Below, in pieces: positions 1-13,254 of a DNA stretch of 13,254 nt (the first letter of the stretch is position 1; every line of letters starts with the position of its first letter). Position numbers and translations under genes: made by a program. The DNA is taken from UHGV virus genome UHGV-0180761; one strand, 5' to 3'. This DNA is from a virus. Under the pieces are notes generated by a model. It did not search any database. It had not been told where the DNA came from and saw only the letters and a list, made by a program, of their open reading frames with translations.

Positions 1-49
1 TTGCAACAAGTTGCTGTTGTTTTATTTTGTACACAAAGTATCTTTAACT

Positions 50-604
50 TTATTTATCCCCTGCAGGAAACCTCTTATACAAAGTTGACACACCAACATC
101 ATAGATAATCGCCACCTTCTGGCGAGGAATGCCTGATGCAATTAATCGCCCGGCCTGCGCCCATTGTTCTAGTGTAAGTTTGGGACGACGTCCCCCAATT
201 CGTCCCTGTGCGCGAGCAGCTTCCAGTCCAGCTTTTGTTCGTTCAACAATCAGTTCTCGTTCCATTTCAGCCAGGGCACCCATCACATGAAAGAAAAAAC
301 GCCCCATCGGTGTGCTGGTATCAATAGCATCCGTCAGGCTGCGAAAATTAACGCCACGTTCGCGCAACTCCTCAACCAGAATGACCAGATGCCGCATACT
401 GCGCCCCAGCCGATCCAGCTTCCAGACAACCAGAGTGTCACCTGCCGATAATGTCCTGAGCAGTTTTTTCAGTCCCGGCCTTTCGGACTTTGTACCGCTT
501 ATCTTGTCTTCAAAAATCAGCTCGCATCCTGCACAGTTCAGCGCATTACGTTGTAGATCTGTGTTCTGGTCATTTGTTGACACACGTACATAGCCAATAA
601 GCAT
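50..604 (-). CDS. pin: Serine recombinase, DNA invertase of the Pin/Gin/Hin/Cin family (184 aa)
   Basis: N-terminal catalytic motif GYVRVSTNDQ, resolvase core, C-terminal HTH (GIPRQKVAIIYDVGVSTLYK). Start taken at internal Met (MLIGYVRV), giving 184 aa; the 12-codon extension in the ORF track has no support. Confidence 0.9.
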   Translation of the reverse strand: MLIGYVRVSTNDQNTDLQRNALNCAGCELIFEDKISGTKSERPGLKKLLRTLSAGDTLVVWKLDRLGRSMRHLVILVEELRERGVNFRSLTDAIDTSTPMGRFFFHVMGALAEMERELIVERTKAGLEAARAQGRIGGRRPKLTLEQWAQAGRLIASGIPRQKVAIIYDVGVSTLYKRFPAGDK

Positions 605-658
605 GGTAGATCTCCCTGACAAAAGCAGGAATGATGCCATTTGCTCGTTATTTCTGCA

Positions 659-684
659 TTTTCATAAATGTTGGTTTGGGAGAA
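659..684. promoter_or_regulatory. Candidate invertase crossover (pix/gix-like) site
   Basis: TTTTCATAAATG-TT-GGTTTGGGAGAA: two 12-bp half-sites around a 2-bp core, the right half resembling the GGTTT-type half-site of gix/hix sites as I remember them; about 55 bp upstream of the pin start. Left half is a poor match. Confidence 0.3.
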
Positions 685-795
685 GCGGCGAAAAGGGATG
701 TGGGCACAGGAGATAATCAGATACCGGATAAAACCGTTCTTACCCGCGCCGAACTTATCCTTCTGCGCGGTTTTCGTGTCTATACGATGCATGGA

Positions 796-1380
796 TTACT
801 CCGGATATTTAAAAATTACGTAGGTATGCGACGGGCAGAGTTTGTTAAGCACACACTCGACAACGGTGTCACCCCAGATACGCAGTGCGGAATCACAGGG
901 ATCGCCACATGTCATCCAGGTGGTGTTGGTGGTGGTTGGCATGTTGACCTGCCAGTAATACCGCCATTCCGGCGCATTCACCGCGTCAGTACAGGCCGAT
1001 GAGCAGGTGAACGTGCTTTTGTCGTATCGCGTGATGGTGGCATCTGGTCTGCCCAGGGCAGCAAGCTGTGCAAGATAAAAATCCTCGTTGATGCCGCCCG
1101 CCAGGTTAACCTTCGCATCCAGCCGTTGCTGACGCTGGCGAAGGGTCTGTGTCCCTGCGGGAATACATTCATCCGGCAGGCCGCACAGACGCTCCCAGCG
1201 ATTTATCAGTTCGGTGGTGGTGCGCGGATCCAGCTCCCGCATCAGGGCATCCGCACGCTGATGAACACGGGTTAATGACGGTGCCGCACCGGCAATCGCC
1301 GGATCGCTGGCTGACCACGCCGGACCGGGGGGCAACAGTGCCGACAACAGACGGATGTAATCATCGTTTGTCACGTCCAT
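796..1380 (-). CDS. ymfQ: YmfQ-like phage baseplate/tail-associated protein (DUF2313-type, 194 aa)
   Basis: ORF 796..1461; start moved to the internal Met at 1380 ([12 protein letters not shown]), which has a GGGGA Shine-Dalgarno about 7 nt upstream and gives 194 aa. Family assignment is from memory, not a search. Confidence 0.6.
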
Positions 1381-1497
1381 GAAATCGTCCCCAGTACCCC
1401 AGCTCGCGGACATCCTTCCCGGTGGGTTCATCAAACTCCAGTACGGAGAGTGTCTCACCATGAGCGATAATCGGTTTCTTTAACTCAAGCTCTTTCA

Positions 1498-1854
1498 TTA
1501 CTGGTAATCCCCTTCTTCACCGTGGAACTCAAGATCAACCGTGCCTTCTTCGGCATTATGGTTCGCTTCTCCGTGCAGCCAGGCGGACGACAATACATAG
1601 ACCTGACCGTTCGCCAGCTCGGCAGTGATGGTCATCTCATCAGACGAGGTGATTTTGCTCACCGGAAAATTCTTCGGCACCTTGAAGGTCCCTTTGACAT
1701 AAGGCGCACGGTGAGTTTCCTTGCGGTCCACTGAACCGTCCAGGCCGATGATGTCATCATTGACCGTCCTGTTCATGGGCACCTCAATGCCGCCGGTCAG
1801 CGATAGCTGCTGACCGTCAATTTTGAAATAACAGGTTCCCCCGATACGGGCCAT
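1498..1854 (-). CDS. Hypothetical phage protein, 118 aa (possibly a tail-tube-like remnant of the structural module)
   Basis: Clean ORF whose ATG overlaps the stop of the upstream 490-aa ORF (TAATG arrangement), which suggests translational coupling. No diagnostic motif recognised; function is a guess from position. Confidence 0.5.
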   Translation of the reverse strand: MARIGGTCYFKIDGQQLSLTGGIEVPMNRTVNDDIIGLDGSVDRKETHRAPYVKGTFKVPKNFPVSKITSSDEMTITAELANGQVYVLSSAWLHGEANHNAEEGTVDLEFHGEEGDYQ

Positions 1855-3326
1855 TATGCAGACTCCTCTGAATACTGAAGACGGAACTGGTTAACCACGG
1901 CAAAAACACGCAACTGGTTAACATAGTCAGGCGGGAACAGCGTGTTCAGGCGGTTCGGATCGCTGGCATCACGCTCCACAACCAGGTACTGCTTAAACAG
2001 TTCGTAGTTTTCCACGATCCCCGCACGCTCAAGCTGACGGTAGGTTGCCAGCAGTTCCCCTTTGATCACCGCCGGAGTGACAATCGCCTGACCGGGACCA
2101 AAGCGGGTACCGTCACTGGCAAGCTTGTGACGCCCGTACTTACTGGTAATGACGGATTTCAGTTTGCGCAGTACATACGCGCTGGTATGCAGCGTCTCAC
2201 TGTCGAGGTAGCTGTTATCCGCAACCCCGTAAGCGTTTTTCCTGTACGTGGTGACATCACGCTGAATGCGCAGTACCCCGCTTTCGACATACGCCGTTGC
2301 CACGCCATGAGACAGCAGGGTCTGTTGTTCGGTCATCGTGAACCGTTTCCCCTTCGGCGCAGGCAGCATACCCACCAGCTCACCGGTCTGCGTGGGACGT
2401 GCCGGATCGTTGCGGATAAACACCGCTGCGCGGGCGGTACGGCTTGCCGCCAGCTCGTCGGCAGGCGTCTGGGTCTCTTTTTCGTACCCCGCCAGGGTAA
2501 TGTGCTGCTGGTTAAACTGGTCACCTGCGGTCACCAGTTCTGACAGCGTACCGGTCTTTGCCGTATACACATGACCATACAGCTGACGCGCATAGCTCCA
2601 GCGACCGCTGGTATCGTTCATCTCGGTCAGGCGAATTTCGTTTGCCCAGGCTGTCCAGTTCGGTTCTTTGGGACGAACCACCTCGCCGTCACATTCGGCG
2701 GCCTGCTCGTACAGGGCGATGATTTTTTTCCAGAGCCACTGTGCGCAGGTCAAATCATCCTGCGTTCCCCACTGGCGCTTTTTAGGGCTGAATACAACCG
2801 CATCAGGATGGCGAGTTAAAAACTCCTGTTCAGCCGTCTGCGTGTCCGGTTGCGAAGCGTCCGGACGAGAAGTTTTTTTATCTGACGGATCATGTTTTGA
2901 TTTTACTGACGGATCCCCGCCAGATTCTGACGGGTGAAAACCCGCTTTTTTGCCAGATTTCGACGCATCAAATTTTGACGGGTCAGATTTTGATGCGTCA
3001 GATTTTGACGGGTCAGAATCTGACAGTTGAGAAAATGCCGCTGCCTGAAGCTTCGCAACGTTAAGCTGATAAACATTCGACGCATTGCGGTTACCCTGGC
3101 GACGCGCCTTACGCGTTAACCAGCCTTCTGCTTCCAGCCGTGCGATAGCCGTTCTGACGGTACTCATTCCCGCGCCAATCTGGCGGGCAATGGTTTCAAT
3201 TGATGGCCAGCACACACCTTCGTCATTACTGAAATCAGCCTGGCGGGCCATAATTGCCACGCTGGATAATTTCATGCCTGATGCAGCGCAACCATCCCAT
3301 ACATAGCCGGTTAATTTAGTGCTCAT
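1854..3326 (-). CDS. YmfN-like chimeric protein (490 aa): N-terminal winged-helix replication-initiator-like domain, low-complexity repeat linker, C-terminal phage structural or packaging domain
   Basis: ATG at 3326 with AGAGG Shine-Dalgarno; N-terminus has an HTH-like segment (SIETIARQIGAGMSTVRTAIARLEAEGWL); middle is a D/S/K/P-rich repeat; the C-terminal 250 aa look like a phage virion or packaging protein, but I cannot tell sheath-like from terminase-like without a search. Confidence 0.7.
   Translation of the reverse strand: MSTKLTGYVWDGCAASGMKLSSVAIMARQADFSNDEGVCWPSIETIARQIGAGMSTVRTAIARLEAEGWLTRKARRQGNRNASNVYQLNVAKLQAAAFSQLSDSDPSKSDASKSDPSKFDASKSGKKAGFHPSESGGDPSVKSKHDPSDKKTSRPDASQPDTQTAEQEFLTRHPDAVVFSPKKRQWGTQDDLTCAQWLWKKIIALYEQAAECDGEVVRPKEPNWTAWANEIRLTEMNDTSGRWSYARQLYGHVYTAKTGTLSELVTAGDQFNQQHITLAGYEKETQTPADELAASRTARAAVFIRNDPARPTQTGELVGMLPAPKGKRFTMTEQQTLLSHGVATAYVESGVLRIQRDVTTYRKNAYGVADNSYLDSETLHTSAYVLRKLKSVITSKYGRHKLASDGTRFGPGQAIVTPAVIKGELLATYRQLERAGIVENYELFKQYLVVERDASDPNRLNTLFPPDYVNQLRVFAVVNQFRLQYSEESA
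2955..3026. repeat. Tandem repeat, about 5 imperfect copies of a 15-bp unit (GATTTTGACGGGTCA / GATTTTGATGCGTCA), inside the YmfN-like CDS
   Basis: Directly visible: agatttcgacgcatca aattttgacgggtca gattttgatgcgtca gattttgacgggtca gaatctgacag. Encodes pentapeptide repeats (SKSDA/SKSDP) on the minus strand; related degenerate copies continue upstream to about 2893. Confidence 0.8.
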
Positions 3327-3335
3327 GACCGACCT

Positions 3336-3674
3336 CTATTTCCCTGAATTTACGACGAAACTGTTCGAGCGGGCTGAAGCACTCATGCTCATAGCCTTCG
3401 CGGAGGTAGATAACACGTTGTGTTTCCGGCTCCCAACGAATGACTCTGACGGGCACACCGTAGTGATCTTTGAACCAGCGGTTAACTTGTCGCAAAGGAC
3501 TGTCTCCTTCTGCCGGTTGAAATCACCCACAGCCCACTCTGCAAAGCTGTGGGTTACAATTTCCCTGTCACCTGGTACATTTACTGCATAGCAATACTCC
3601 ACCTTCGCTTTTCCACCCGGTACAGGAAGCGCAATCAGTTGCGAGCGACGGTAGTGTGTTGTTAAACTGTTCAT
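3336..3674 (-). CDS. ymfM: YmfM-like protein (112 aa)
   Basis: ORF length equals K-12 YmfM (112 aa) and sits in the same position after the YmfL-like gene; ATGA start/stop overlap with the upstream gene. Identity by length and synteny only. Confidence 0.6.
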
Positions 3675-4234
3675 GCGTTAGTTTCTCCACAGTCACGACA
3701 CGCCACGGCGCCCGGAGCTGCACACTCGCGGGCGTCACTACTTTCTGAAACGCAAAAGATTTTGTAGACCAGTGCTGCATGCTCCTGCAGCTTCGAAATT
3801 GAGAGATACAGCTCATCGTTAATTGCTGTCTTCTCATGCGGTTCCACTACACCGTCTTCAATTGCTGAACGAATCTGTTTTGAATAACTGCCGATCTGTT
3901 CAATGACTTCCAGCAGGCGTTGGTTGATATCGGCGTTGTCCACATCCTCGACGTCAGGAAGAGACACAAAGACGCCATTTGCAGACTGCGCCACAGCATC
4001 AGCAATGAAGTGAGTGCCACCAGCACGCTGTAAAACCATTGCCCATCCCAGCGGGAAAATCTGATCGCCATCTGCACGAAGGCGGTTGAATAAAGCGTTT
4101 TCTGTTACATCGAGCCAGTCAGCCGCTTCAGCGTAACCACCCGGCAACGCCGCGATAGTTTTTCTGACAGCTTTCACGTACCACTCAGGCTGTTTTTCTA
4201 TTTTCCAGTGATGCTTACCCACGGTTAGCCTCAT
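3671..4234 (-). CDS. ymfL: YmfL-like protein (187 aa), function unknown
   Basis: First gene downstream of cro on the minus strand, coupled to the YmfM-like gene by an ATGA overlap; C-terminal CxxC pair ([17 protein letters not shown]). Name by synteny and length (K-12 YmfL about 189 aa). Confidence 0.6.
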
Positions 4235-4265
4235 CGTTCTGTGGTTAAAAATTGAAAGTGTTCTG

Positions 4266-4466
4266 CTAATCTTTCGGATAGATATCCGGTCTTAAGTCAG
4301 ATTTCGTAATTGCACCTGACGTGCATTGCTCAAGTTTTTTAGCCAGCACAAAACTGGCTTTTTTATAGCCATTGAAAACCAGCCGTAAGTAGCCAGGTGT
4401 TGAGCCAACTTTTCCGGCCAACTCGCCCTGCTGTTCTTTGGTTAAAGAGTCCCAATACGCTTTCAT
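4266..4466 (-). CDS. croE: Cro-like repressor (66 aa)
   Basis: Short form MKAYWDSLTKEQQGELAGKVGSTPGYLRLVFNGYKKASFVLAKKLEQ with an HTH; GAGG Shine-Dalgarno upstream of ATG at 4466; divergent from the cI-type repressor across an operator region. The 167-aa ORF in the track is an artefactual extension through the operators. Confidence 0.75.
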   Translation of the reverse strand: MKAYWDSLTKEQQGELAGKVGSTPGYLRLVFNGYKKASFVLAKKLEQCTSGAITKSDLRPDIYPKD

Positions 4467-4468
4467 AC

Positions 4469-4493
4469 AATATGTACCTCCGGTGTACATATT
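4469..4493. promoter_or_regulatory. Operator-like palindrome AATATGTAC-N7-GTACATATT (OR site)
   Basis: Perfect 9-bp inverted arms directly upstream of the cro start, in the cro/cI intergenic region. Confidence 0.55.
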
Positions 4494-4520
4494 ACATGAT
4501 TGAAATGAACCTTCAAGATA

Positions 4521-4541
4521 CTTGTACCTTAACGGTACAAG
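4521..4541. promoter_or_regulatory. Operator-like palindrome CTTGTACC-N5-GGTACAAG (OR site), overlapping a putative PRM-like promoter
   Basis: Perfect 8-bp inverted arms 16 bp upstream of the repressor ATG; TTTAAT at 4545-4550 is a possible -10 that would give a near-leaderless repressor mRNA (inference). Confidence 0.55.
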
Positions 4542-4556
4542 GGTTTTAATTTCGTT

Positions 4557-5231
4557 ATGAAAACAATCCATGACATCCGGCGGTCTAACGCCAGAAAACT
4601 GAGAGATGGTGTTGGCGGGAATTCTTCCTTTGCCACTATGATTGATCGCGAGCCAACCCAGACCAGCAGGTTTATGGGAGATGGTGCTACTAAAAATATC
4701 GGTGACAGCATGGCACGACACATCGAAAAATGTTTCGACCTGCCTGTCGGATGGCTCGATCAAGAACACCAGACAACGAACATCACAAAAAAACCTGATG
4801 TTTCAATCACTAATAAACAAATCACATTAGTCCCTGTCATATCATGGGTACAGGCCGGAGCATGGAAAGAAGTTGGATATTCTGAGGTTGATTTGAGCAC
4901 AGCAGAAACGTATCCCTGCCCTGTACCCTGTGGGGAAATGACTTATATCTTGCGGGTGATAGGTGATTCAATGATTGATGAGTACCGCCCGGGAGACATG
5001 ATTTTTGTCGATCCTGAAGTACCTGCCTGCCACGGTGACGACGTTATTGCATTGATGCACGATACAGGCGAAACCACCTTCAAAAGGTTGATAGAAGATG
5101 GGACACAGCGTTATCTCAAAGCGTTAAACCCAAACTGGCCTGAGCCTTACATTAAGATCAACGGTAATTGCTCTATAATTGGTACAGTGATTTTCTCAGG
5201 AAAACCAAGAAGATACAAAATCAAAGCCTAA
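4557..5231 (+). CDS. cohE: CI-type prophage repressor with C-terminal S24 (LexA-like) autopeptidase domain (224 aa)
   Basis: C-terminal S24 motif (VIGDSMIDEYRPGDMIFVDPE ... TFKRL, Ser/Lys dyad context); divergent from cro; length equals K-12 CohE (224 aa). Confidence 0.85.
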   Translation: MKTIHDIRRSNARKLRDGVGGNSSFATMIDREPTQTSRFMGDGATKNIGDSMARHIEKCFDLPVGWLDQEHQTTNITKKPDVSITNKQITLVPVISWVQAGAWKEVGYSEVDLSTAETYPCPVPCGEMTYILRVIGDSMIDEYRPGDMIFVDPEVPACHGDDVIALMHDTGETTFKRLIEDGTQRYLKALNPNWPEPYIKINGNCSIIGTVIFSGKPRRYKIKA

Positions 5232-5243
5232 TCAATGTTTATG

Positions 5244-5266
5244 AACCTGCTTCGGCAGGTTTTTTT
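5244..5266 (+). terminator. Rho-independent terminator downstream of the repressor gene
   Basis: AACCTGC-TTCG-GCAGGTT hairpin followed by a run of 6-7 T, starting 13 nt after the repressor stop codon. Confidence 0.7.
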
Positions 5267-5270
5267 ATAC

Positions 5271-5303
5271 TTGACAATGTACCTTTGAGATACATAATGT
5301 ACC
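5271..5303 (+). promoter_or_regulatory. PL-like sigma70 promoter with two direct AATGTACC operator half-sites
   Basis: TTGACA (5271-5276), 16-bp spacer, CATAAT (5293-5298); AATGTACC at 5276-5283 and 5296-5303 overlap the -35 and -10, sharing the TGTACC core of the cro/cI operators. Confidence 0.55.
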
Positions 5304-5380
5304 CAAGCGAAACAACGAACAGGCAGGACGCCCACGAAGTAGCCGCCTGGGGCATATGAAGTCCAGGATGATTCGTTAGC

Positions 5381-5407
5381 AACAAAAAAGCGCCCTACAG
5401 GACGCTT
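5381..5407 (-). terminator. Minus-strand intrinsic terminator-like hairpin
   Basis: On the minus strand: AAGCG(T)CC-TGTAG-GGCGCTT followed by TTTTGTTG; lies about 240 nt downstream of the stop of the 144-aa minus-strand gene. Confidence 0.4.
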
Positions 5408-5465
5408 AGCTCTTTAACAATCTGGTCCCCATCAACAAGTAACTGATAACTTGAGGAGATGTGAA

Positions 5466-5672
5466 ATGCACAAAACAGAACCCAAAATCGTCGCGCCTGG
5501 CTACACAGATGAGGAAATTTATGAGTGGATGACAAAGAAGCTGGCAGCTATAAACCAGCTTCGTGAAGTGCTGTCTTATCGACAGGAAACAATAGACTCC
5601 TTAAAAAAACTGGATCAGGAAATCACGGTTTTATCACAGGATGTTACTTTAGATATTGTGCAGACAAATTAG
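5466..5672 (+). CDS. Hypothetical small protein (68 aa), first ORF after the PL-like promoter
   Basis: ATG at 5466 with GAGGAG Shine-Dalgarno 6 nt upstream (the ORF track started at an upstream TTG); predicted helical/coiled-coil-like. Its 3-prime end overlaps the convergent 144-aa gene by 29 nt. Confidence 0.4.
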   Translation: MHKTEPKIVAPGYTDEEIYEWMTKKLAAINQLREVLSYRQETIDSLKKLDQEITVLSQDVTLDIVQTN

Positions 5673-6078
5673 GATCCCATTCATTTTCGTCAAAATCATC
5701 AAAGTGATGAATTTGTGATCTCCAGTCTCGATAATCTAAAAATTTCTGGGCGGTTACGCTTATTTTATCAAGTGTGAGTTCATCCTGAATTGAAAGAAGA
5801 AGTTCATCAAATTTCATCTCATTAATCTGTTTTGGCATCCAGTGATGCTTCATCAGAATAAGGTGAACCAGAGCCTTTTTCCCATTCAACTGATTATAGG
5901 GAGTGCCGAATTTCTTCCGGTGCTCATGTAAGACAAGGTCCAAAAGAGTAAGTAATGTTGCCCTTGATTCAACTTTGCTTATTTCGACTGATGACACTAC
6001 CCCACTGATTTCAATGCCCCGATACTTTCCAACATTTTCACAGTGGGATTTGTACAGCGTATAGATATTACCGGACAT
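5644..6078 (-). CDS. Hypothetical protein (144 aa), AT-rich moron gene of unknown function
   Basis: Clean ORF with AAGGA Shine-Dalgarno about 7 nt upstream of ATG at 6078; visibly more AT-rich than flanking prophage genes; opposite orientation to the surrounding plus-strand operon. No motif recognised. Confidence 0.6.
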   Translation of the reverse strand: MSGNIYTLYKSHCENVGKYRGIEISGVVSSVEISKVESRATLLTLLDLVLHEHRKKFGTPYNQLNGKKALVHLILMKHHWMPKQINEMKFDELLLSIQDELTLDKISVTAQKFLDYRDWRSQIHHFDDFDENEWDPNLSAQYLK

Positions 6079-6092
6079 TTCTTTTCCTTTTG

Positions 6093-6143
6093 CGTTGTTG
6101 GGGATAACCAGATTAACCGAATCCTTGTTGTTGGGGAATAACC
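6093..6143. repeat. Direct repeat GTTGTTGGGGATAACCAG / GTTGTTGGGGAATAACCAGG upstream of the 144-aa gene
   Basis: Two 18-20-bp near-identical copies (one has an extra A) separated by about 13 bp, sitting 15-65 bp upstream of the minus-strand start codon. Confidence 0.6.
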
Positions 6144-6364
6144 AGGTCCACCTCGCCTGATGTGGCTAAAAGCAGGCACATAACAGCTAAGTATTTTCAA
6201 CCAGAGAGAATCCTTAGCGTTGTGGTGAATGCGGCTCAGCGCACGCGGGTTAAGGTTGAGGCTGACAGTCGACCTTCTGTGGATACCCACCCGCCTGGTG
6301 TGCAACCTTCGCCAGGCACCGGGAGGCACCCGGCACCACAACTTTATGCTGTGTGTAGTCCTGG

Positions 6365-6410
6365 CGGTACCAGTTTGTACCCTTGCTTCCGGCTGGTACC
6401 GTCCTTTTTA
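6365..6410 (+). promoter_or_regulatory. Inverted repeat CGGTACCAG-N19-CTGGTACCG followed by a T-run; operator cluster or terminator-like element in a non-coding stretch
   Basis: Perfect 9-bp arms; the spacer contains TTGTACCC (same core as the cro/cI operators); followed by TCCTTTTTA. Lies in a roughly 400-bp GC-rich region with no convincing ORF. Confidence 0.35.
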
Positions 6411-6546
6411 CAAAACAGAGAAGAGCATCACCGGACGACGGGCTCATAACCCAATCCATCCGGGCGGCTGCCACCGCAGGTGTTCTTCTCTGTTTTGTGG
6501 AGAAACTAATCGGCCTTGCAGGGTCGATATGATGAGGAGCAGCAAA

Positions 6547-6909
6547 ATGGCTAGCGAACGCAGTACTGATGTGCAGGCATTTATCGGGGAGCTGGACGGC
6601 GGCGTATTTGAAACCAAAATCGGCGCAGTTCTCAGTGAAGTCGCTTCCGGTGTGATGAACACGAAAACCAAAGGTAAGGTCTCACTCAACCTGGAAATCG
6701 AACCATTTGATGAGAACCGTGTGAAAATCAAACACAAACTCTCATATGTTCGCCCGACTAACCGCGGGAAAATTTCCGAAGAAGACACCACCGAAACGCC
6801 GATGTATGTCAATCGCGGTGGTCGCCTGACTATTCTGCAGGAAGACCAGGGACAGTTACTGACTCTTGCCGGTGAACCTGACGGAAAACTCCGCGCAGCA
6901 GGTCGTTAA
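6547..6909 (+). CDS. YfdP-like prophage protein (120 aa), function unknown
   Basis: Start set at ATG 6547 (GAGGAG 8 nt upstream) rather than the 226-aa track ORF; 120 aa and position upstream of a YfdQ-like gene match the CPS-53 yfdP-yfdQ-yfdR arrangement as I recall it. Confidence 0.55.
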   Translation: MASERSTDVQAFIGELDGGVFETKIGAVLSEVASGVMNTKTKGKVSLNLEIEPFDENRVKIKHKLSYVRPTNRGKISEEDTTETPMYVNRGGRLTILQEDQGQLLTLAGEPDGKLRAAGR

Positions 6910-6974
6910 TATCGTTTTTAATTAACTGATTATTTATCTCATCACTGAATATCTTTATATAGTGAGGACTTATT

Positions 6975-7799
6975 ATGTCTCAGAACTTAGACGCAACCGC
7001 AATTAATCAAATCCATGCCCTTATTTCTGCTCAGGGTGTTAATGAAATTATCAGTAAGATTGGTGCCGATGCTGTGGCATTGCCTGAGAATTTCCGCATT
7101 CATGACCTGGAAAAATTTAATTTAAATCGCTTCCGTTTCCGTGGTGCGCTTTCCACTGCCAGCATTGATGACTTTACCCGTTATTCTAAAGATCTTGCAG
7201 ATGAAGGCACCCGCTGCTTTATCGATGCTGATAATATGCGTGCCGTCAGTGTGCTTAACCTGGGTACTATTGATGAACCAGGCCACGCAGATAACACCGC
7301 CACTCTCAAACTGAAAAAGACAGCACCGTTCTCTGCTCTGTTGTCTGTTCACGGCGAGCGTAACTCCCAGAAATCACTGGCAGAATGGATTGAAGACTGG
7401 GCCGACAACCTTGTGGGCTTTGATGCTAATGGTGACGCCATTCAGGCAACCAAAGCGGCTGCGGCGATCCGTAAAATCACAATTGAAGCGAACCAGACTG
7501 CTGATTTTGAAGACAATGACTTCAGCGGCAAACGCTCCCTGATGGAGTCTGTCGAAGCGAAGACCAAAGACATTATGCCAGTGGCATTTGAATTTAAATG
7601 CGTTCCGTTTGAAGGTCTGAAAGAACGTTCTTTTAAATTACGCCTCAGCATTATCACTGGCGATCGTCCTGTACTTGTTCTGCGCATTATTCAGCTGGAG
7701 GCGGTGCAGGAAGAAATGGCTAACGAATTTCGCGATCTGCTTGTTGAGAAATTCAAAGACAGCAAAGTAGAAACCTTTATTGGTACTTTCACCGCCTGA
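6975..7799 (+). CDS. YfdQ-like prophage protein (DUF2303-type, 274 aa)
   Basis: Clean ATG with TGAGGA Shine-Dalgarno; length matches CPS-53 YfdQ (274 aa); sits between YfdP-like and YfdR-like genes. Confidence 0.75.
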
Positions 7800-7811
7800 T
7801 TTGATTACTGC

Positions 7812-7833
7812 AAATGCCCCTGCGGGGGCATTT
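7812..7833. other. Perfect stem-loop AAATGCCCC-TGCG-GGGGCATTT between the YfdQ-like and HD-domain genes
   Basis: 9-bp GC-rich stem with 4-nt loop, 12 nt after the YfdQ-like stop; only a short TTT follows, so it is more likely an attenuator or RNA-processing/stability element than a strong terminator. Confidence 0.35.
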
Positions 7834-7927
7834 ATGGAAACGTAATTAACTCAATAATCGCCGGATGGTGAGGGCTTCCTTTTACCAGAATTCAGTGCGG
7901 TGCAGCGCAAATAACGTGGAGAACAAA

Positions 7928-8476
7928 ATGTCATTTATTAAAACTTTTTCTGGGAAGCATTTTTATTATGACAGGATAAATAAAGACGATATCGTTATTA
8001 ACGATATCGCGTTTTCCCTTTCAAATATCTGTCGCTTTGCAGGACATCTTTCACACTTCTACAGCGTCGCCCAACATGCGGTTCTTTGCAGCCAACTGGT
8101 ACCGCAGGAATTTGCTTTTGAAGCGTTAATGCATGATGCAACAGAAGTGTATTGCCAGGACATCCCCGCTCCACTGAAACGCCTTCTTCCTGACTATAAA
8201 CAGATGGAAGAAAAAATAGACGCCGTAATCCGTGAGAAATACGGGTTACCCCCGGTTATGAGTACGCCCGTGAAATATGCCGATCTCATCATGCTGGCAA
8301 CCGAACGCCGCGATCTCGGGCTTGATGATGGCTCTTTCTGGCCTGTACTGGAAGGCATCCCGGCAACAGAGATGTTCAACGTGATTCCACTGGCACCGGG
8401 CCATGCCTACGGGATGTTTATGGAACGCTTTAAAGAGCTGCATAAGATGCATAAACAATCCAGACAGCGAAATTAA
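7928..8476 (+). CDS. HD-domain phosphohydrolase, YfdR-like 5-prime-deoxynucleotidase family (182 aa)
   Basis: HD-domain signature residues (RFAGHLSHFYSVAQHA ... LMHDATEVY ... D); start set at ATG 7928 with GGAG Shine-Dalgarno instead of the upstream ATG at 7865. Confidence 0.8.
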   Translation: MSFIKTFSGKHFYYDRINKDDIVINDIAFSLSNICRFAGHLSHFYSVAQHAVLCSQLVPQEFAFEALMHDATEVYCQDIPAPLKRLLPDYKQMEEKIDAVIREKYGLPPVMSTPVKYADLIMLATERRDLGLDDGSFWPVLEGIPATEMFNVIPLAPGHAYGMFMERFKELHKMHKQSRQRN

Positions 8477-8519
8477 CTAGTGAAATAGTTTTGTAGCAAA
8501 AGAAATGAGGTTATCAAAA

Positions 8520-8765
8520 ATGCTTCAAATGCTGACACTTGAGGAATGGGCTGCGGAAAAATACAGAAGTAATCCTCCAAGCGTGTCCACATTGCGTCGT
8601 TATGCTAAGCAGAATTTATTTTGTCCACCGGCAATGAAACAAGGTCGACTATGGCGAGTGCGTGAGGACGCAGAGTTAGTTGGGGAATTAGTTACTCCTG
8701 TCATCAAGAAAAATGATTCTATTATTCTACAAAGGATTTTAAGTAATGGCAGCCAGACCACGTAA
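8520..8765 (+). CDS. xis: Excisionase (81 aa)
   Basis: Small basic protein directly upstream of and overlapping the integrase start by 20 nt; start set at ATG 8520 (GAGG 9 nt upstream), giving 81 aa, the length of K-12 XisE. Confidence 0.7.
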   Translation: MLQMLTLEEWAAEKYRSNPPSVSTLRRYAKQNLFCPPAMKQGRLWRVREDAELVGELVTPVIKKNDSIILQRILSNGSQTT

Positions 8766-9873
8766 AAATAATGTTTCAGTCCCGAACTTGTATCCGCTTT
8801 ATAGTAGAAAAGTAAATAAAGTCTATTGGCGATATAAACATCCAGTGACCGGGAAGTTTCATTCTTTAGGCACAAACGAAGCTGAAGCCATTGCTATTGC
8901 CACTGAGGCAAATTCACGCCTGGCTGAGCAAAGAACCCGGCAGATTCTGGCTATCAGTGACAGGATCGCAACCAGCAAAGGAAAAGCAATCACAACGTCA
9001 ACCTGGTTAGATCGCTATCAAGCAATCCAGGAAGACAGACTGAAAAGTGGCGATATAAAGCTCAACACCTATAAACAGAAAGCCAAACCAGTATCCTTGC
9101 TCAGGGAACGAGCAGGACTGAAGTTGATATCAGCCGTTGATGTCAGAGATATAGCACAATTACTTGATGAGTATATCTCTGCTGGACAGCCTAGAATGGC
9201 CCAGGTCGTAAGGTCTGTATTGATCGATGTGTTTAAGGAAGCACAGCATTACGGCGAAGTTCCACCAGGGTATAACCCTGCTCTTGCAACGAAGCAACCC
9301 AGAAGGAAAATTAGCCGTCAACGCCTCAGCCTAGAAGAATGGAAAAAAATATTCGATATCGCAGACGCCGCTCATCGTTATATGGGAAATGCCATGCTCC
9401 TAGCTTTGGTCACTGGGCAGCGTTTAGGAGATATATCCAAAATGAAATTTAGTGATATTTGGGAGGATCATCTTCACGTCATTCAGGAAAAGACCGGGAG
9501 CAAAATCGCTATCCCTCTTTCTTTACGTTTGAATGCTATCAACTGGTGTTTACGTGATGTAGTAGCTCGCTGCCGTGACTACGCAGTCAGCCCATACTTA
9601 GTGCATTTTTTCCGTACTACATCACAGGCTGAACGTGGCGCACAGGTAAAAGCTAATACACTAACGATGAACTTTAGCAAGGCACGTGATCTGGCAGAAA
9701 TTGATTGGGGTACTGGAACTCCAGCAACTTTTCATGAACAAAGATCTTTATCTGAGCGTCTTTACAAGGAACAAGGGATTGATACCAGAAAGTTACTGGG
9801 CCATAAAACCCAGCAGCAAACCGATCGTTACCATGATGACCGAGGGAAAGGTTGGAGCAAAGTAGCATTGTAA
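8746..9873 (+). CDS. intE: Tyrosine integrase, phage integrase family (375 aa)
   Basis: C-terminal catalytic region with conserved Arg/His/Tyr context (LLGHKTQQQTDRYHDD), N-terminal arm-binding region; 375 aa equals K-12 IntE; preceded by xis. Confidence 0.9.
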   Translation: MAARPRKNNVSVPNLYPLYSRKVNKVYWRYKHPVTGKFHSLGTNEAEAIAIATEANSRLAEQRTRQILAISDRIATSKGKAITTSTWLDRYQAIQEDRLKSGDIKLNTYKQKAKPVSLLRERAGLKLISAVDVRDIAQLLDEYISAGQPRMAQVVRSVLIDVFKEAQHYGEVPPGYNPALATKQPRRKISRQRLSLEEWKKIFDIADAAHRYMGNAMLLALVTGQRLGDISKMKFSDIWEDHLHVIQEKTGSKIAIPLSLRLNAINWCLRDVVARCRDYAVSPYLVHFFRTTSQAERGAQVKANTLTMNFSKARDLAEIDWGTGTPATFHEQRSLSERLYKEQGIDTRKLLGHKTQQQTDRYHDDRGKGWSKVAL

Positions 9874-10078
9874 AAATTTAAGCGTTTCAACGCCATCTTG
9901 ATTTTCTTAACATTATGGAAAAGAACCAAACAGTCCGCTTTGAGCCAGGAACAGAGTTTTCTAATATGGTGAACTGCAATGCCTGAACATATATTAGACC
10001 AATCTTTTGAAATTTTGCTAAAGAATCATCAAATAATGTCGATAATAATGATATACCATATGAAAGGGAATATAATTT

Positions 10079-10576
10079 ATGCCACATTTAGACGAAATTC
10101 GCAGAAAGCTAAGGAAACAATGTCCTACATCCGCAGGCGAGGATGGTGAAGAGTATGCTCTTAAATGGTTAGAAAACTCCCAATGGGAGTTTGTATATGT
10201 CGAACAAGGAAAAACAGACCTATCTAAAAGTTTAAAAATATATGGGGGAAAACGCCCCGATTTTATTATTAAAGTTGATAGTAACACCTTTATTCTTCTG
10301 GATGCAAAGTATCATTCAACAGAGAACTGCACCTCCTTTACACTCACAGAGTGTGAAATAGGTAAGTATCGCGCACTCAAGCAATTTTTAATTAATAAAA
10401 ATAGCGAACTTACGTTCGAAGTGATTTTCATGGTATTTCCAAAAGAAAAAGATGGCAAGAAATTTGTATTTGTTAGTTTGGATGAGTTTGATAAAGGAGA
10501 ATGTGTAACTCTAGCATCAAAAAATGCAACAAAGATTAGTCTACTCAATAGAGATAATTTATGGCTTGACCATTAA
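10079..10576 (+). CDS. Hypothetical protein (165 aa) with a PD-(D/E)xK nuclease-fold signature
   Basis: Motif P60-D61 (GGKRPDFII) followed 14 residues later by hydrophobic-hydrophobic-D-A-K (FILLDAKY), with upstream Glu candidates; AAGGGA Shine-Dalgarno upstream of ATG; located in the AT-rich cargo after int. Confidence 0.6.
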   Translation: MPHLDEIRRKLRKQCPTSAGEDGEEYALKWLENSQWEFVYVEQGKTDLSKSLKIYGGKRPDFIIKVDSNTFILLDAKYHSTENCTSFTLTECEIGKYRALKQFLINKNSELTFEVIFMVFPKEKDGKKFVFVSLDEFDKGECVTLASKNATKISLLNRDNLWLDH

Positions 10577-10865
10577 TGTTAAAAGCGACTTGTTTCTGCA
10601 CTTTTTAAGATTGCTATTTTAATTATGCCGACTATAGATGAAATCTGTGAGTCGTAGTGTGTTTAATAAATATATTCCAACGAAACCTCAGATTATATCA
10701 GATTGCCAGCAAGACTACTGTTAGGAATGTTAGCGTCACAAAATTGACTTTCAAAATGGGTTGAATGTCCGCAGTGAACGAAAAACTGACTTGGCACAGT
10801 CACAGCTAGAAAATTAGTAAGACATCCAATGACTTTTCCCCGATATTGGCTGAATGTCTTTATTA

Positions 10866-11705
10866 CTATCTAAATCTAACCTCACAAAACCAGTTATTTT
10901 CCGAGAGACAACTATAGAGTGCGGATTGCCAAGAATTTAAGCTTACCGATTTTTTTCCAGCTGCGGTTTCAGTCAAGTATTTTTTTAACTCGATACTCCC
11001 CCCCCCATCGTAAATTCTCTTTGCGATATATTCAATGCTCGCTAGTTCTTCAGCTGCATGTGATGCATAAAGAGCAGACAACTTAAATGCCTTAAAGTGA
11101 TACTTCATACGTTTAGCTAAAAGTGGGGGGCAATCTTCAGGTGGCTCTACATAAAACTCTATCGCTACAGGAATAGATTCCCGTATTTTTGCCTTAACCC
11201 AAACAAATGCTTCTACATCATCGTAATATGGGTGCAAAGTTTCTTCTTCTGAGCAAATTGGGATATCTTCGCTCTTTGTTTTATTACAATCCTGACAGGC
11301 TGGTATAAGATTAAAAGGCGATACAGCCAATGATGGAAAATGTGCTTTAGGTAAGTGATGATCTAATGTCGATACTACTCTTTGAGAACATAGTGGGCAT
11401 CTTCCATGATCTGGAAGTGACATTAACTTGTCATAATAGATACGCCCTGGGGCTAATTTCTTAGCCATTCTGCTTGTATAGACAACCTTCATTTCGTCAA
11501 CTGTAACAACAGTGGCAACATTGTCTTTAGGCAAAATTGTATGTAATTGTGCAATTGATACTTTTGCATCAAATTCTATTGAGGAATCTTCTATTTCTTG
11601 AGAACATGCTATAAGCCTCCTCTTTAAATCTTCATCGCGAACTCGATCAATGCATGCATTAAATACATCCAACGCACTATCATTCGGTTTTAAGAGTTTT
11701 TTCAT
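10866..11705 (-). CDS. HNH endonuclease-domain protein (279 aa), second gene of an ATPase-nuclease operon
   Basis: Zinc-finger HNH signature CPLC(103-106) ... DHHLPK(115-120) ... N132 ... CQDCN(137-141); the ATG overlaps the stop of the upstream ATPase gene (ATGA), so the two are translationally coupled. Confidence 0.8.
   Translation of the reverse strand: MKKLLKPNDSALDVFNACIDRVRDEDLKRRLIACSQEIEDSSIEFDAKVSIAQLHTILPKDNVATVVTVDEMKVVYTSRMAKKLAPGRIYYDKLMSLPDHGRCPLCSQRVVSTLDHHLPKAHFPSLAVSPFNLIPACQDCNKTKSEDIPICSEEETLHPYYDDVEAFVWVKAKIRESIPVAIEFYVEPPEDCPPLLAKRMKYHFKAFKLSALYASHAAEELASIEYIAKRIYDGGGSIELKKYLTETAAGKKSVSLNSWQSALYSCLSENNWFCEVRFR
10998..11006. repeat. Homopolymeric C9 tract (G9 on the coding strand) inside the HNH gene
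   Basis: Directly visible: ctccccccccccatc at 10996-11009; encodes Gly234-Gly236 of the HNH protein. Confidence 0.9.
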
Positions 11706-13249
11706 GATTGGTTTCTCTTAATTAAAAACAAAGCCCGCAAAATACCTCTAGCTTCAATTCCAAGTTGCCCATTGAAATTTTGCACAGCTGAATCGTAATC
11801 TTCGAATTTATTTACAGCATCGTCAAGAAGATTATGGAATCCAGAGTCGGTATTTTCCAATCCAAATACCTCCCTCGTTAGTATACCCACATTTTCACCG
11901 AAAGATTCTGTTTCTAGCCTTTCTACTTTAGACAAGTAGCCACTACGCCACAACTTCCACGTACAGCTTCGAGGAACTTCCTGGAGAACTACAGGAGAGT
12001 GGGTAGCTATTATAGATACTGCATTCCTATTAATTAATAAATCAGAAAGAGACCTTACAAAAGCTGATAATAATGGTGGATGGAGATGAGCTTCTGGTTC
12101 ATCTAAAAAAACCAAGCTTCTTTCTTCCATTGTCTCGACAAGTCTAGTGATAGTTAGCAATACAATTTTGTGCCCGGAACTTAAATTTTTGAATACTCTT
12201 CCTGCAATATCTTTAAACTCATCTTCATCTTGTCTATTCAATATTGATGCTACATTAATGTCAGCAAATACTGGATCTGACTCCAGCTTATCCACAGCCC
12301 TTTTCCAACGTTCAATTTTCCCTCCTGCCTTACAAGAAAGCATACTTTTCACGAATTCATTTTTCAATATAACAGGGCTTTTGGGCGGGAGACTTTTCTC
12401 ATCACCTTTTTTTACTCTTTTTAGTCCCACATATGAAAACTGTATACCTGTAGATTTATCTTTTTTTTCTGATAAAGGTTCTGTTTCATCAAAAGCGCTA
12501 AAAGTGACTGATACTACGTTAGAGAAAAGCTCACCAGCTAGTTGATCTTTAGATGAAAATTCACCGACTTTTGTTGGCGTTGTATTTTCGTCAATTAATG
12601 AACTAATCATATTATTCATTAAATGCGTTTTCCCAACACCATTCCGACCAATTAGCACATGAATATTTGTTGGGGGATTGCTCTCTGGTATCACTTCAAA
12701 ACTTAACTTAATACGGTCAGAGTCAGTGCCTTTCATCACTGGTGAGTTATATGAAAATGAATATTTTGAAAGTCGAGCACCTCCGTTCGCAAGTCGACGA
12801 AACTGTCCCTTAATAGATGTATGGCTGACGGATCTCAGAAGAGATATGCTAGTGACCCTCTCATTTATTGCTTTATTATATATATCTTCACTCAGAGCAA
12901 TATCATTAAGCGATGATAATATTTCATTTCGGATATCTTCTCCTAGTTCATTCAACACTTCGTAAAAACTATCATCTTGACCAACGGAGAAAAAACTCTC
13001 ATCTAGTTTTTCGAAAGCTTCAGGGATACTTGGTCTACTTTGACCTTTCGCCATATTCAATTGGCCAATTTTAGTAGAACCAATAATATTCTTATCCTTA
13101 TTTGAATCTATATAAACCAATGTATACATTGTAGAAAATTCAAACCAGTCATCCCAATTATCAGTAATTAAATAGGCACAGTTAGATTGTTCAACAGAGC
13201 ACATACTTCCCGCAGGCAGCACCTTAAATCTCATCTTTATCCCACTCAT
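11702..13249 (-). CDS. ABC-type (AAA_15/AAA_21-like) ATPase, 515 aa, with an unrecognised 200-aa N-terminal domain; first gene of the ATPase-HNH operon
   Basis: Walker A GRNGVGKT (aa 201-208, nt 12626-12649), signature-like LSSGHK (356-361), Walker B LVFLDEPE (379-386), H-loop ATHSP (415-419). In-frame TAA sits immediately upstream of the first ATG, 5 nt from the window edge, so the promoter is outside the window. Confidence 0.8.
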   Translation of the reverse strand: MSGIKMRFKVLPAGSMCSVEQSNCAYLITDNWDDWFEFSTMYTLVYIDSNKDKNIIGSTKIGQLNMAKGQSRPSIPEAFEKLDESFFSVGQDDSFYEVLNELGEDIRNEILSSLNDIALSEDIYNKAINERVTSISLLRSVSHTSIKGQFRRLANGGARLSKYSFSYNSPVMKGTDSDRIKLSFEVIPESNPPTNIHVLIGRNGVGKTHLMNNMISSLIDENTTPTKVGEFSSKDQLAGELFSNVVSVTFSAFDETEPLSEKKDKSTGIQFSYVGLKRVKKGDEKSLPPKSPVILKNEFVKSMLSCKAGGKIERWKRAVDKLESDPVFADINVASILNRQDEDEFKDIAGRVFKNLSSGHKIVLLTITRLVETMEERSLVFLDEPEAHLHPPLLSAFVRSLSDLLINRNAVSIIATHSPVVLQEVPRSCTWKLWRSGYLSKVERLETESFGENVGILTREVFGLENTDSGFHNLLDDAVNKFEDYDSAVQNFNGQLGIEARGILRALFLIKRNQS

Positions 13250-13254
13250 TTATA

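Follow-up and report, generated by a model that had tools for sequence, protein, structure and literature searches.

The window analyzed here, a stretch of 13,254 nucleotides from UHGV virus genome UHGV-0180761, contains a small open reading frame (ORF; 10079-10576) that lies between a prophage integrase gene and a two-gene Septu-like system. We found that this ORF is a real gene, that it belongs to an uncharacterized family within the well-known PD-(D/E)xK superfamily of nucleases, and that it moves between unrelated genomic contexts as a solo cassette, independently of its PtuA/PtuB-like neighbors. Its predicted fold is that of the restriction endonucleases, and its conserved residues align with those of a Holliday junction resolvase active site. 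Our explanation is that the ORF is a mobile solo gene whose product is a catalytically competent PD-(D/E)xK endonuclease that acts autonomously, probably as a single-gene defense or exclusion nuclease. We give this explanation a probability of about one half.

The ORF is a conserved gene

The ORF is on the plus strand, starts with ATG and consists of 165 codons and a stop codon, with a Shine-Dalgarno sequence (AAGGGA, 10064-10069) 9 bases 5' of the ATG. The guanine-plus-cytosine (GC) content of its three codon positions (0.446/0.313/0.289) fits a coding frame. A sequence-only reading of the window had reported a PD...hh-D-x-K arrangement in this ORF of 165 amino acids (aa), and direct reading of the translation confirms it: P60-D61 is followed by D75-A76-K77, and the hydrophobic pair before D75 is L73-L74. 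The same reading cautioned that such a motif could arise by chance. By itself the motif is just mildly unusual. The pattern PD-x(8-25)-hh-[DE]-x-K occurred in 187 of 20,000 shuffles of the ORF protein (0.9%), and of the 26 stop-free translations with a length of 100 aa or more in the six frames of the window, the ORF alone has it. The caution thus holds for the motif alone but not for the protein, whose conservation (33 homologs and 221 cluster representatives, see below) and confident restriction-endonuclease-like model place the motif beyond chance.

Among 5.8 billion proteins, a word-indexed search identified 33 relatives of approximately 165-177 aa with identities down to 40%. An exhaustive hidden Markov model search recovered 221 of 1.84 billion cluster representatives with E<=1e-3; of these, 86 had E<=1e-10 and 30 had E<=1e-30. 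Most were 160-210 aa in length, and a length of 165-180 aa is typical of the family. The homologs span Enterobacterales, Idiomarina, Pseudoalteromonas and Acinetobacter and are related over the full length of the protein. Twenty positions are invariant in an alignment of 24 sequences, including G23-E24, G56-D61 (GGKRPD), D75, K77, H79, E93 and Y97. In a broader alignment of 71 sequences, which reaches down to approximately 20% identity, E24 and D61 are invariant and G20, K58, R59, P60, D75 and K77 are conserved in 90% or more of the sequences, so that the three residues on which the sequence-only reading depended (D61, D75 and K77) are retained among homologs. One candidate member (P0055) was a repeat-protein false positive and was rejected. 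A Pfam scan of the longer members (P0034, P0038, P0045, P0154, P0162 and P0179) gave no informative extra domain.

The match of the ORF protein to PHROG 28481 is full-length (2.3e-117, covering profile positions 1-165 of 165), and distant members of the family match it too. By this profile match the ORF belongs to PHROG 28481, a library entry whose function is unannotated, and the fold, active site and genomic context given here are new for that entry. No family in Pfam, NCBIfam or PADLOC matched the ORF protein above threshold. The sub-threshold Pfam matches over the motif region include three PD-(D/E)xK families (RmuC, McrBC/McrC and the FokI cleavage domain), and the 71 family members gave scattered matches to NERD, RmuC, HSDR_N, DpnII, PDDEXK_7 and VRR_NUC, in one or two members each. 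Comparison with PD-(D/E)xK profiles therefore touched several families of the superfamily, but for the ORF all of the matches were below significance. In the literature we found no mention of WP_001120279, and nothing specific on e14/icd hotspots or on Hjc-like defense genes.

It is very improbable that the ORF is a decayed or orphan remnant of a type II or type IV restriction enzyme, or a functionless frame with a chance motif. The motif is short, there is no significant match to a curated family, and two of three complete genomes have an ORF that is interrupted by IS1. However, the protein is conserved over its full length across Enterobacterales and the other groups named above, with its 20 invariant positions, the structural model is confident and compact, and the codon-position GC content is that of a coding frame. 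The sequence-only reading had listed a decayed restriction-enzyme fragment among three possible roles. This suggestion does not agree with the size of the protein: approximately 165-175 aa is the full length of the family, the ORF is not truncated relative to its relatives, and the match to PHROG 28481 runs from end to end. In addition, there is no methyltransferase among the scanned ORFs of the window, and none is adjacent in most of the other contexts.

Predicted fold and active site

An AlphaFold2 model built from the 24-sequence alignment has a mean predicted local distance difference test score of 88.7 and a predicted template modeling score of 0.84. The model consists of helices at 4-14 and 16-32 (with E24), a strand at 37-40, a helix at 50-55, strands at 62-65 (with D61 at its start), 70-79 (with D75 and K77) and 86-90, a helix at 91-107 (with E93 and Y97), a strand at 112-121, and then a beta-rich tail (128-165). 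The alpha-beta-beta-beta-alpha-beta core of restriction-endonuclease-like proteins is present, and the three marks of its active site (an acidic residue on alpha1, PD at the start of beta2, and (D/E)xK in beta3) are all found and are conserved. The PD-(D/E)xK nuclease fold that had been proposed from the sequence is thus supported by the model core and by the conserved E24, D61, D75 and K77 in their canonical places on alpha1, beta2 and beta3. As modeled, the catalytic tetrad is intact and conserved on a restriction-endonuclease fold, and the topology and the alignment with Hjc described below suggest that its four residues cluster in space. The helix with E93 and Y97 resembles the QxxxY helix motif of RecB/Cas4-type nucleases.

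The closest structures are those of Holliday junction resolvases. Foldseek searches of the PDB gave Hje (1ob8, 1.6e-4) and the DREN domain of SPARDA (9qcc, E 9e-4), and a search of BFVD gave viral Holliday-junction resolvases. With hhalign, the 71-sequence profile aligned over 123 columns with Hjc (the Sulfolobus solfataricus sequence, identical to 1hh1_A) at a pairwise E of 0.0017. This alignment pairs E24 with E12, GGKR with GSKR, P60-D61 with P41-D42, D75 with E55, and K77 with K57 (ORF and Hjc, respectively). E12, D42, E55 and K57 are what we take to be the published catalytic residues of Hjc, and each has an equivalent in the ORF protein. The two proteins are otherwise quite different. 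The ORF protein is only approximately 11-15% identical to archaeal Hjc/Hje (2wcw, 1gef, 1ob8 and 1hh1), and the Pfam Hjc model has no match to the ORF at E<=1 and none to the 71 family members at E<=0.01. Hjc has E-x-K where the ORF protein has D-A-K, and the ORF protein has an extra N-terminal helix, an insertion at 41-55 and approximately 40 residues of C-terminal beta elements. Lastly, Hjc is a core recombination gene of archaea, whereas the ORF is cargo of bacterial prophages and islands.

The ORF protein also has some likeness to the nuclease McrC. A profile search of PDB sequences gave no match with the 24-sequence alignment, and with the 71-sequence alignment its sole match was the McrC motif (6ut5, E 0.13), in which GGKRPDF...LLDAKYH of the ORF aligns with SSQKPDYVV...VLDAKYR. 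The Pfam McrBC model scores 12.6 bits over residues 24-85, with a cut-off of 23.9. However, these matches are below significance, McrC is approximately 350-460 aa, and the ORF protein does not have the rest of McrC. McrBC also has a GTPase partner, McrB, and there is none near the ORF or in the related loci that were examined. SduA of Shedu and the DREN domain of SPARDA are PD-(D/E)xK nucleases that serve as defense effectors in islands. These proteins are two to three times longer and have sensor domains or an Argonaute partner, whereas the ORF protein is essentially a bare nuclease domain, and the Shedu models of PADLOC do not match it.

The gene moves as a cassette

The DNA homology to unrelated contexts found by blastn begins at approximately 9930-10035 and ends at approximately 10584, and two P2-like copies (L002 and L039) share the DNA from 9932 to 10730. 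What the unrelated contexts have in common is a cassette of approximately 0.65-0.8 kb, made up of the ORF and approximately 140 bp upstream. Breakpoints vary among contexts, with 5' ends at 9930-10109 and 3' ends at 10542-10730. In an alignment of the upstream region from seven contexts, TAAAGA (10019-10024) and GATAAT (10041-10046), separated by a 16-bp spacer, are invariant and make up a promoter-like pair, and there is a ribosome-binding site of the AAGGA type. Another promoter called by a scanner (ATGATA-17-TATAAT, 10048-10076) is not conserved and was rejected. Three ORFs in the flanks (9979-10149, 56 aa; 9887-10087, minus strand, 66 aa; and 10638-10724, 28 aa) were also rejected, as their start codons are not conserved in the alignments. 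The conserved 5' and 3' flanks have no match in Rfam, there is no consensus RNA structure upstream, and the 3' flank has no significant RNA fold (z = 0.04; weak covariation among 3 sequences). The LexA-box pattern CTG-N10-CAG does not occur between intE and the ORF. Because the flanks lack a conserved RNA, ORF or LexA box, we conclude that the gene moves as a self-contained promoter-plus-ORF cassette without an antitoxin, a methyltransferase or a regulator.

A gene that moves in this way could be selfish. If the ORF encoded a free-standing homing-type endonuclease, its cassette would spread by cutting empty target sites. We consider this improbable. The flanks and insertion sites are unrelated in nearly all contexts, with no shared target site evident, and the recombination breakpoints vary. 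The ORF is also not placed like a homing endonuclease of the I-Ssp6803I type, which would be expected within an intron or intein or at a single conserved site; it is outside any intron, intein or conserved gene.

Several features of the cassette and its edges are described here for completeness. The heptamer ATG(C/T)CGA is found approximately 43-45 nt 5' of the start codon in most loci of close homologs (10036-10042 in the window; loci L002, L011, L018, L019, L022, L023, L024, L026 and L034 were examined). A second heptamer is found approximately 46-58 nt past the stop codon in the window (10625-10631), in a Rahnella locus and in the loci linked to Ppl. After each heptamer comes an A/T-rich hexamer that resembles a -10 element (GATAAT, GACTAT or GAAAAT). 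The repeat may have arisen by duplication of a promoter or operator, or may be left over from the ends of the cassette. In one locus (L018, approximately 70-115), approximately six tandem copies of GAGCAAT are directly 5' of the point at which cassette homology starts. A terminator scan of 9850-10900 found five sites with a hairpin and a T-run, where shuffles predict 0.6. Of these sites, four fall within the ORF, one is just after intE (9881-9894, minus strand), and none is in the convergent intergenic region (10577-10865).

Independence from the neighboring PtuA/PtuB-like pair

The HNH and ATPase genes next to the ORF overlap each other and are both on the minus strand. Their profile matches (Table 1) identify them as a Septu-type PtuB/PtuA pair. 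The ORF is convergent with this pair, with a stop-to-stop gap of 289 bp. As the sequence-only reading had stated, it is an independently transcribed gene: it is on the opposite strand and has its own conserved promoter-like region.

The same reading had raised the possibility that the ORF is an accessory or regulatory partner of the pair. In that case it would be a sensor, a regulator or a second effector of PtuA/PtuB in a three-gene system. The identical protein was always found beside the same PtuAB-like pair in the intE-icd slot, in 24 of the 24 E. coli and Shigella contigs that were read, and the three genes are alike in their low GC content. These copies, at 100% identity, are a single lineage. 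In contrast, PtuA and PtuB are found in none of the approximately 15 contexts of diverged homologs, and PtuB-like genes occur without the ORF family: 19 phage records, among them lambda with its ea31/ea59, and 79 plasmid records have such genes, compared to 0 and 1 for the ORF family. Among the records listed, PtuB-like genes usually adjoin an annotated AAA ATPase, and PADLOC defines both PDC-M01 and Septu as two-gene systems. The conserved co-occurrence and co-orientation that would mark a third component of Septu were not found, and the ORF protein and the Septu components have different folds. In two chromosomes taken to be Shigella copies (L043 and L044; CP178307.1 and CP182545.1, 5907-6626), the HNH protein is called as 239 rather than 279 aa and the 165-aa ORF is intact and identical. 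The proposed partnership is therefore not borne out, and we regard a three-gene system as improbable, much like a homing function. A Septu-like pair does share the prophage cargo slot by the attachment site with the ORF, and the co-occurrence is limited to one E. coli/Shigella lineage.

Distribution and genomic contexts of the family

The locus is present in 3 of 5,426 complete E. coli genomes. The exact, intact protein sequence is found in 455 blocks of the assembly collection and is widespread in E. coli and Shigella assemblies. When the 24-sequence alignment was used to search for related loci, only 4 genome loci and 7 viral loci were recovered. The family has no match among 50,697 sequenced phage genomes, which argues against a core function in the phage life cycle, and the plasmid collection contains one match, a frameshifted copy.

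Homologs are found in many kinds of cargo. Two are in the slot between gpS and gpV of P2-like prophages, one is at the end of a P4-like satellite, and others are at the ends of prophages near Ppl (PADLOC 2e-157), integrase, and Pin/tail-fiber genes. Homologs with 30% identity lie directly after a P2-type integrase. Some are in defense islands. For example, an Idiomarina island has a homolog with ApeA-HEPN, AbiTii and SIR2, an Acinetobacter island has one with a type III restriction-modification system and a PDC-S06/PrrC-like gene, another island has one with a type III restriction-modification system, AIPR and a NucS_C protein, and an island bounded by two integrases has one with HipBA, BrxR and JetD. 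A DUF3800 gene adjoins the homolog in one context, and two or three contexts have nothing recognizable. Altogether, at least 11 of approximately 16 independent contexts are in prophage, satellite or integrase-bounded cargo, and 6 have recognized defense genes within one or two genes, by raw count. Hotspots in prophages and satellites are reservoirs of defense genes, and 11 of 16 systems tested from P4 hotspots were active (bioRxiv 10.1101/2021.01.21.427644).

The family does not travel with a fixed companion. In the gpS-gpV slot the companions differ: a 329-aa gene on the same strand in one copy (L002, 6844-7833, plus strand; weak match to DUF3226) and a 407-aa gene on the opposite strand in the other (L039, 1002-2225, minus strand). 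The neighbors without a known function (329, 407, 203, 205, 364 and 383 aa) have no identity in Pfam or PADLOC and are unrelated to each other, and an all-against-all comparison of neighboring proteins gave no recurrent partner. The two P2 hotspots described in bioRxiv 10.1101/2021.01.21.427644 do not include the gpS-gpV junction, which may be a further variable cargo slot. Two loci (L017, 4377-7468, and L029, 1377-4480) have the same row of genes, for a 207-aa S24-type repressor-like protein (a label read from its sequence), a 297-aa protein without a Pfam match, a 338-aa tyrosine integrase and a homolog of 170-174 aa. The gaps in this row are 3-30 bp, and the homolog may thus be co-transcribed with the integrase.

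Three loci have umuD/umuC within 1-2.5 kb of the homolog (L010, 9523-11481; L019, 8679-10369 and also 1454-1693; and L015, 9075-10732). Two of these three loci also have DinI, and one has an SRAP (YedK-like) gene. Two of the loci are related to each other, with UmuC proteins that are 84% identical. The proximity of umuDC may be coincidental mobile-element cargo or may reflect a link to DNA damage.

Possible roles in defense or in the resolution of DNA junctions

The main rival to a defense role is that the ORF encodes a structure-specific junction-resolving or repair nuclease, analogous to Hjc, RecU or RusA, that serves recombination, fork processing or damage tolerance and not immunity. Hjc resolvases provide both the nearest structures and the sole full-length profile alignment, which includes the basic G-x-K-R loop. 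A junction-specific nuclease needs no immunity partner, and DNA damage genes are close to the homolog in the three umuDC contexts. However, the family is found in variable cargo slots (between integrase and attachment site, between gpS and gpV, at satellite ends and in islands) rather than in recombination or replication modules. It is also rare in complete E. coli genomes and absent from the sequenced phage genomes, and the ORF has no LexA-box pattern upstream. umuDC is itself frequent cargo of mobile elements, and two of its three contexts are related to each other. We consider this alternative unlikely.

A stand-alone effector is the best reading among the three roles that the sequence-only reading had listed, and the genomic contexts make it plausible. 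Several observations weigh against a defense nuclease. All 33 relatives have the database name "hypothetical protein". PADLOC-DB v2.0.0, which includes Shedu, PD-T4/T7/Lambda and the PDC and HEC models, gave 0 families at E<=1, so no validated defense family is related to the ORF at the sequence level. The likeness to Hjc is equally expected of a resolvase for recombination or repair, and the hhalign probability against the single Hjc sequence is low (15%) despite the E value. Some contexts have no recognizable defense gene, namely those in Citrobacter and at a metagenome prophage end, with umuDC, DinI and SRAP, one in Pseudoalteromonas, and a further locus that lies between efflux and type I secretion genes. 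The argument from defense contexts is itself a raw count with no formal background control. Lastly, of the three complete E. coli genomes that have the locus, two carry an ORF broken by IS1, and the ORF is therefore dispensable in those two.

In one of these genomes (EC06; L012, 1855-2624), IS1 has entered the ORF in codons 23-25, on E24, and has duplicated 9 bp of target (10146-10154 of the window). In the other (X14-3; L013, 3288-4001 and 6265-6962), an IS1-bounded deletion has taken away all of the DNA to the left of window position 10456, and the ATPase gene is split by another IS1. The breaks could mean that the ORF is costly to carry, or merely that IS1 prefers AT-rich DNA.

A model for the putative solo nuclease

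We postulate that the ORF protein is a Mg2+-dependent DNA endonuclease with a minimal, Hjc-like core (alpha1-beta1-beta2-beta3-alpha-beta) and a beta-rich C-terminal extension of approximately 40 residues. The chemistry of the superfamily suggests E24, D61 and D75 as metal ligands, with K77 activating or positioning the water for the attack. Contacts with the DNA backbone would be made by R12 and by the invariant G-G-K-R loop that precedes P60-D61. Like Hjc, RecU and the type II enzymes, the protein probably acts as a homodimer. The gene is a horizontally mobile "moron", a cassette dropped into variable slots of prophages, satellites and defense islands, and in the window it is a mere neighbor of the Septu-like PtuA/PtuB pair. 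As a single-gene defense or exclusion nuclease, it would cut the DNA of invading phages or mobile elements.

A nuclease of this kind has to spare the DNA of its host. The family has no conserved methyltransferase, antitoxin or other partner and the intact gene is widespread, so it is unlikely that the protein cuts ordinary, unmodified host duplex at sequence sites. Given the Hjc-like core and loop, we prefer selectivity for DNA structure, such as branched replication or recombination intermediates, although we hold even this to be doubtful. Selectivity for modified DNA is less likely than that, and quite unlikely. A trigger-dependent abortive mechanism is also possible. For the family as a whole, we tentatively suggest, at somewhat less than even odds, that PHROG 28481 is an unrecognized single-gene anti-phage system, a bare, Hjc-like nuclease of approximately 165 residues, lacking a sensor domain, a methyltransferase and an antitoxin, that tells invader from host by DNA structure or modification and spreads as a cassette among hotspots of prophages, satellites and islands.

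The prophage and its cargo slot

The left 9.9 kb of the window is a degraded e14/SfV-like prophage. E. coli 23CRST035 has an identical locus, in which RefSeq lists yfdQ, yfdR, xisE, intE, a hypothetical gene (the ORF), an HNH endonuclease gene, an AAA ATPase gene and icd, with a displaced fragment of icd at the far end of the prophage. From this gene order and the displaced icd fragment, we conclude that the ORF and its neighbors are cargo between the integrase and the attachment site. The AT-rich cargo setting described by the sequence-only reading is evident in the GC content, which is 0.349 for the ORF and 0.361 for 9874-13254, compared to 0.481 for 1-9873. The positions of the features are given in Table 1.

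Table 1. Features in and around the ORF, by position in the window
Feature	Position	Strand	Basis or remark
IntE, e14-type tyrosine integrase	8746-9873	+	Pfam Arm-DNA-bind_1 and Phage_integrase; RefSeq annotation
AT-rich 5' region that travels with the ORF	9937-10078	+	blastn to seven unrelated contexts; mean identity of alignment 73%
E24 codon (GAA)	10148-10150	+	Helix alpha1, in GEDGE; predicted metal-ligand glutamate; pairs with Hjc E12
G57-K58-R59-P60-D61 codons	10247-10261	+	Basic loop and PD motif, start of beta2
D61 codon (GAT)	10259-10261	+	
D75-A76-K77 codons	10301-10309	+	(D/E)xK motif, middle of beta3 (model strand 70-79)
D75 codon (GAT)	10301-10303	+	
K77 codon (AAG)	10307-10309	+	
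E93-I-G-K-Y97 codons	10355-10369	+	Helix 91-107 after the core strands; E93 and Y97 are family-specific invariants
Non-coding 3' flank	10577-10730	+	Shared solely with L002 and L039; second ATGCCGA at 10625-10631
PtuB-like HNH nuclease, not part of the unit	10866-11705	-	Pfam HNH 8.7e-5; PADLOC PDC-M01B 1.7e-106
PtuA-like AAA_15/AAA_21 ATPase, not part of the unit	11702-13249	-	Pfam AAA_21 5.4e-20; PADLOC PDC-M01A 2.9e-210, PtuA 5e-195

The slot between intE and icd in e14-like prophages is a variable cargo hotspot. In E. coli K-12 it presumably holds lit, ymfD and ymfE. In four other E. coli strains that were compared (TUM1880, MDR_56, AMSHJX01 and S19-651; L030-L033), most of the cargo genes are unannotated. 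One strain has DarTG cargo, with genes for a macro-domain protein, a DarT fragment and an HD protein, and the other cargo consists of an AAA ATPase and a 188-aa protein, hypothetical proteins of 1,040 and 156 aa, or three hypothetical proteins with IS elements. The gene for the 156-aa protein, which is on the plus strand after intE (L032), was considered as a relative of the ORF and is unrelated.

Two further observations concern the prophage and the PtuB/PtuA pair. A minus-strand gene at 1854-3326 encodes a 490-aa chimera of an HTH_36/replication-protein-like domain (residues 30-80) and the two C-terminal domains of a tail sheath protein (234-481). Next to it are genes for a tail tube protein (1498-1854) and for a Mu Gp48-like protein (796-1461). 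The chimera resembles a deletion scar, which suggests that the prophage is defective. The HNH protein aligns with lambda Ea31 over 98% of its length at 26% identity (E 9e-23; J02459.1, 24524-25399), and lambda ea59, beside ea31, encodes an AAA ATPase. The ea31/ea59 genes in the b region of lambda, by attP, look like a PtuB/PtuA pair of the Septu/PDC-M01 type that is placed with respect to the attachment site as the pair in the window is.

Implications for the family

For annotation, the practical consequence is that PtuA and PtuB should be entered as a two-gene system and the ORF as a separate unit. If the ORF protein is a junction resolvase for recombination or repair, then it is an ordinary accessory gene. 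If it is a stand-alone defense nuclease, then it would be among the smallest, a bare restriction-fold domain that is carried safely without a modification or antitoxin partner. It would then bear on how self and non-self DNA are discriminated, and it would give a function to an unannotated PHROG. In that case, the intE-icd slot of e14 and the gpS-gpV slot of P2 would join the prophage hotspots that are worth mining.

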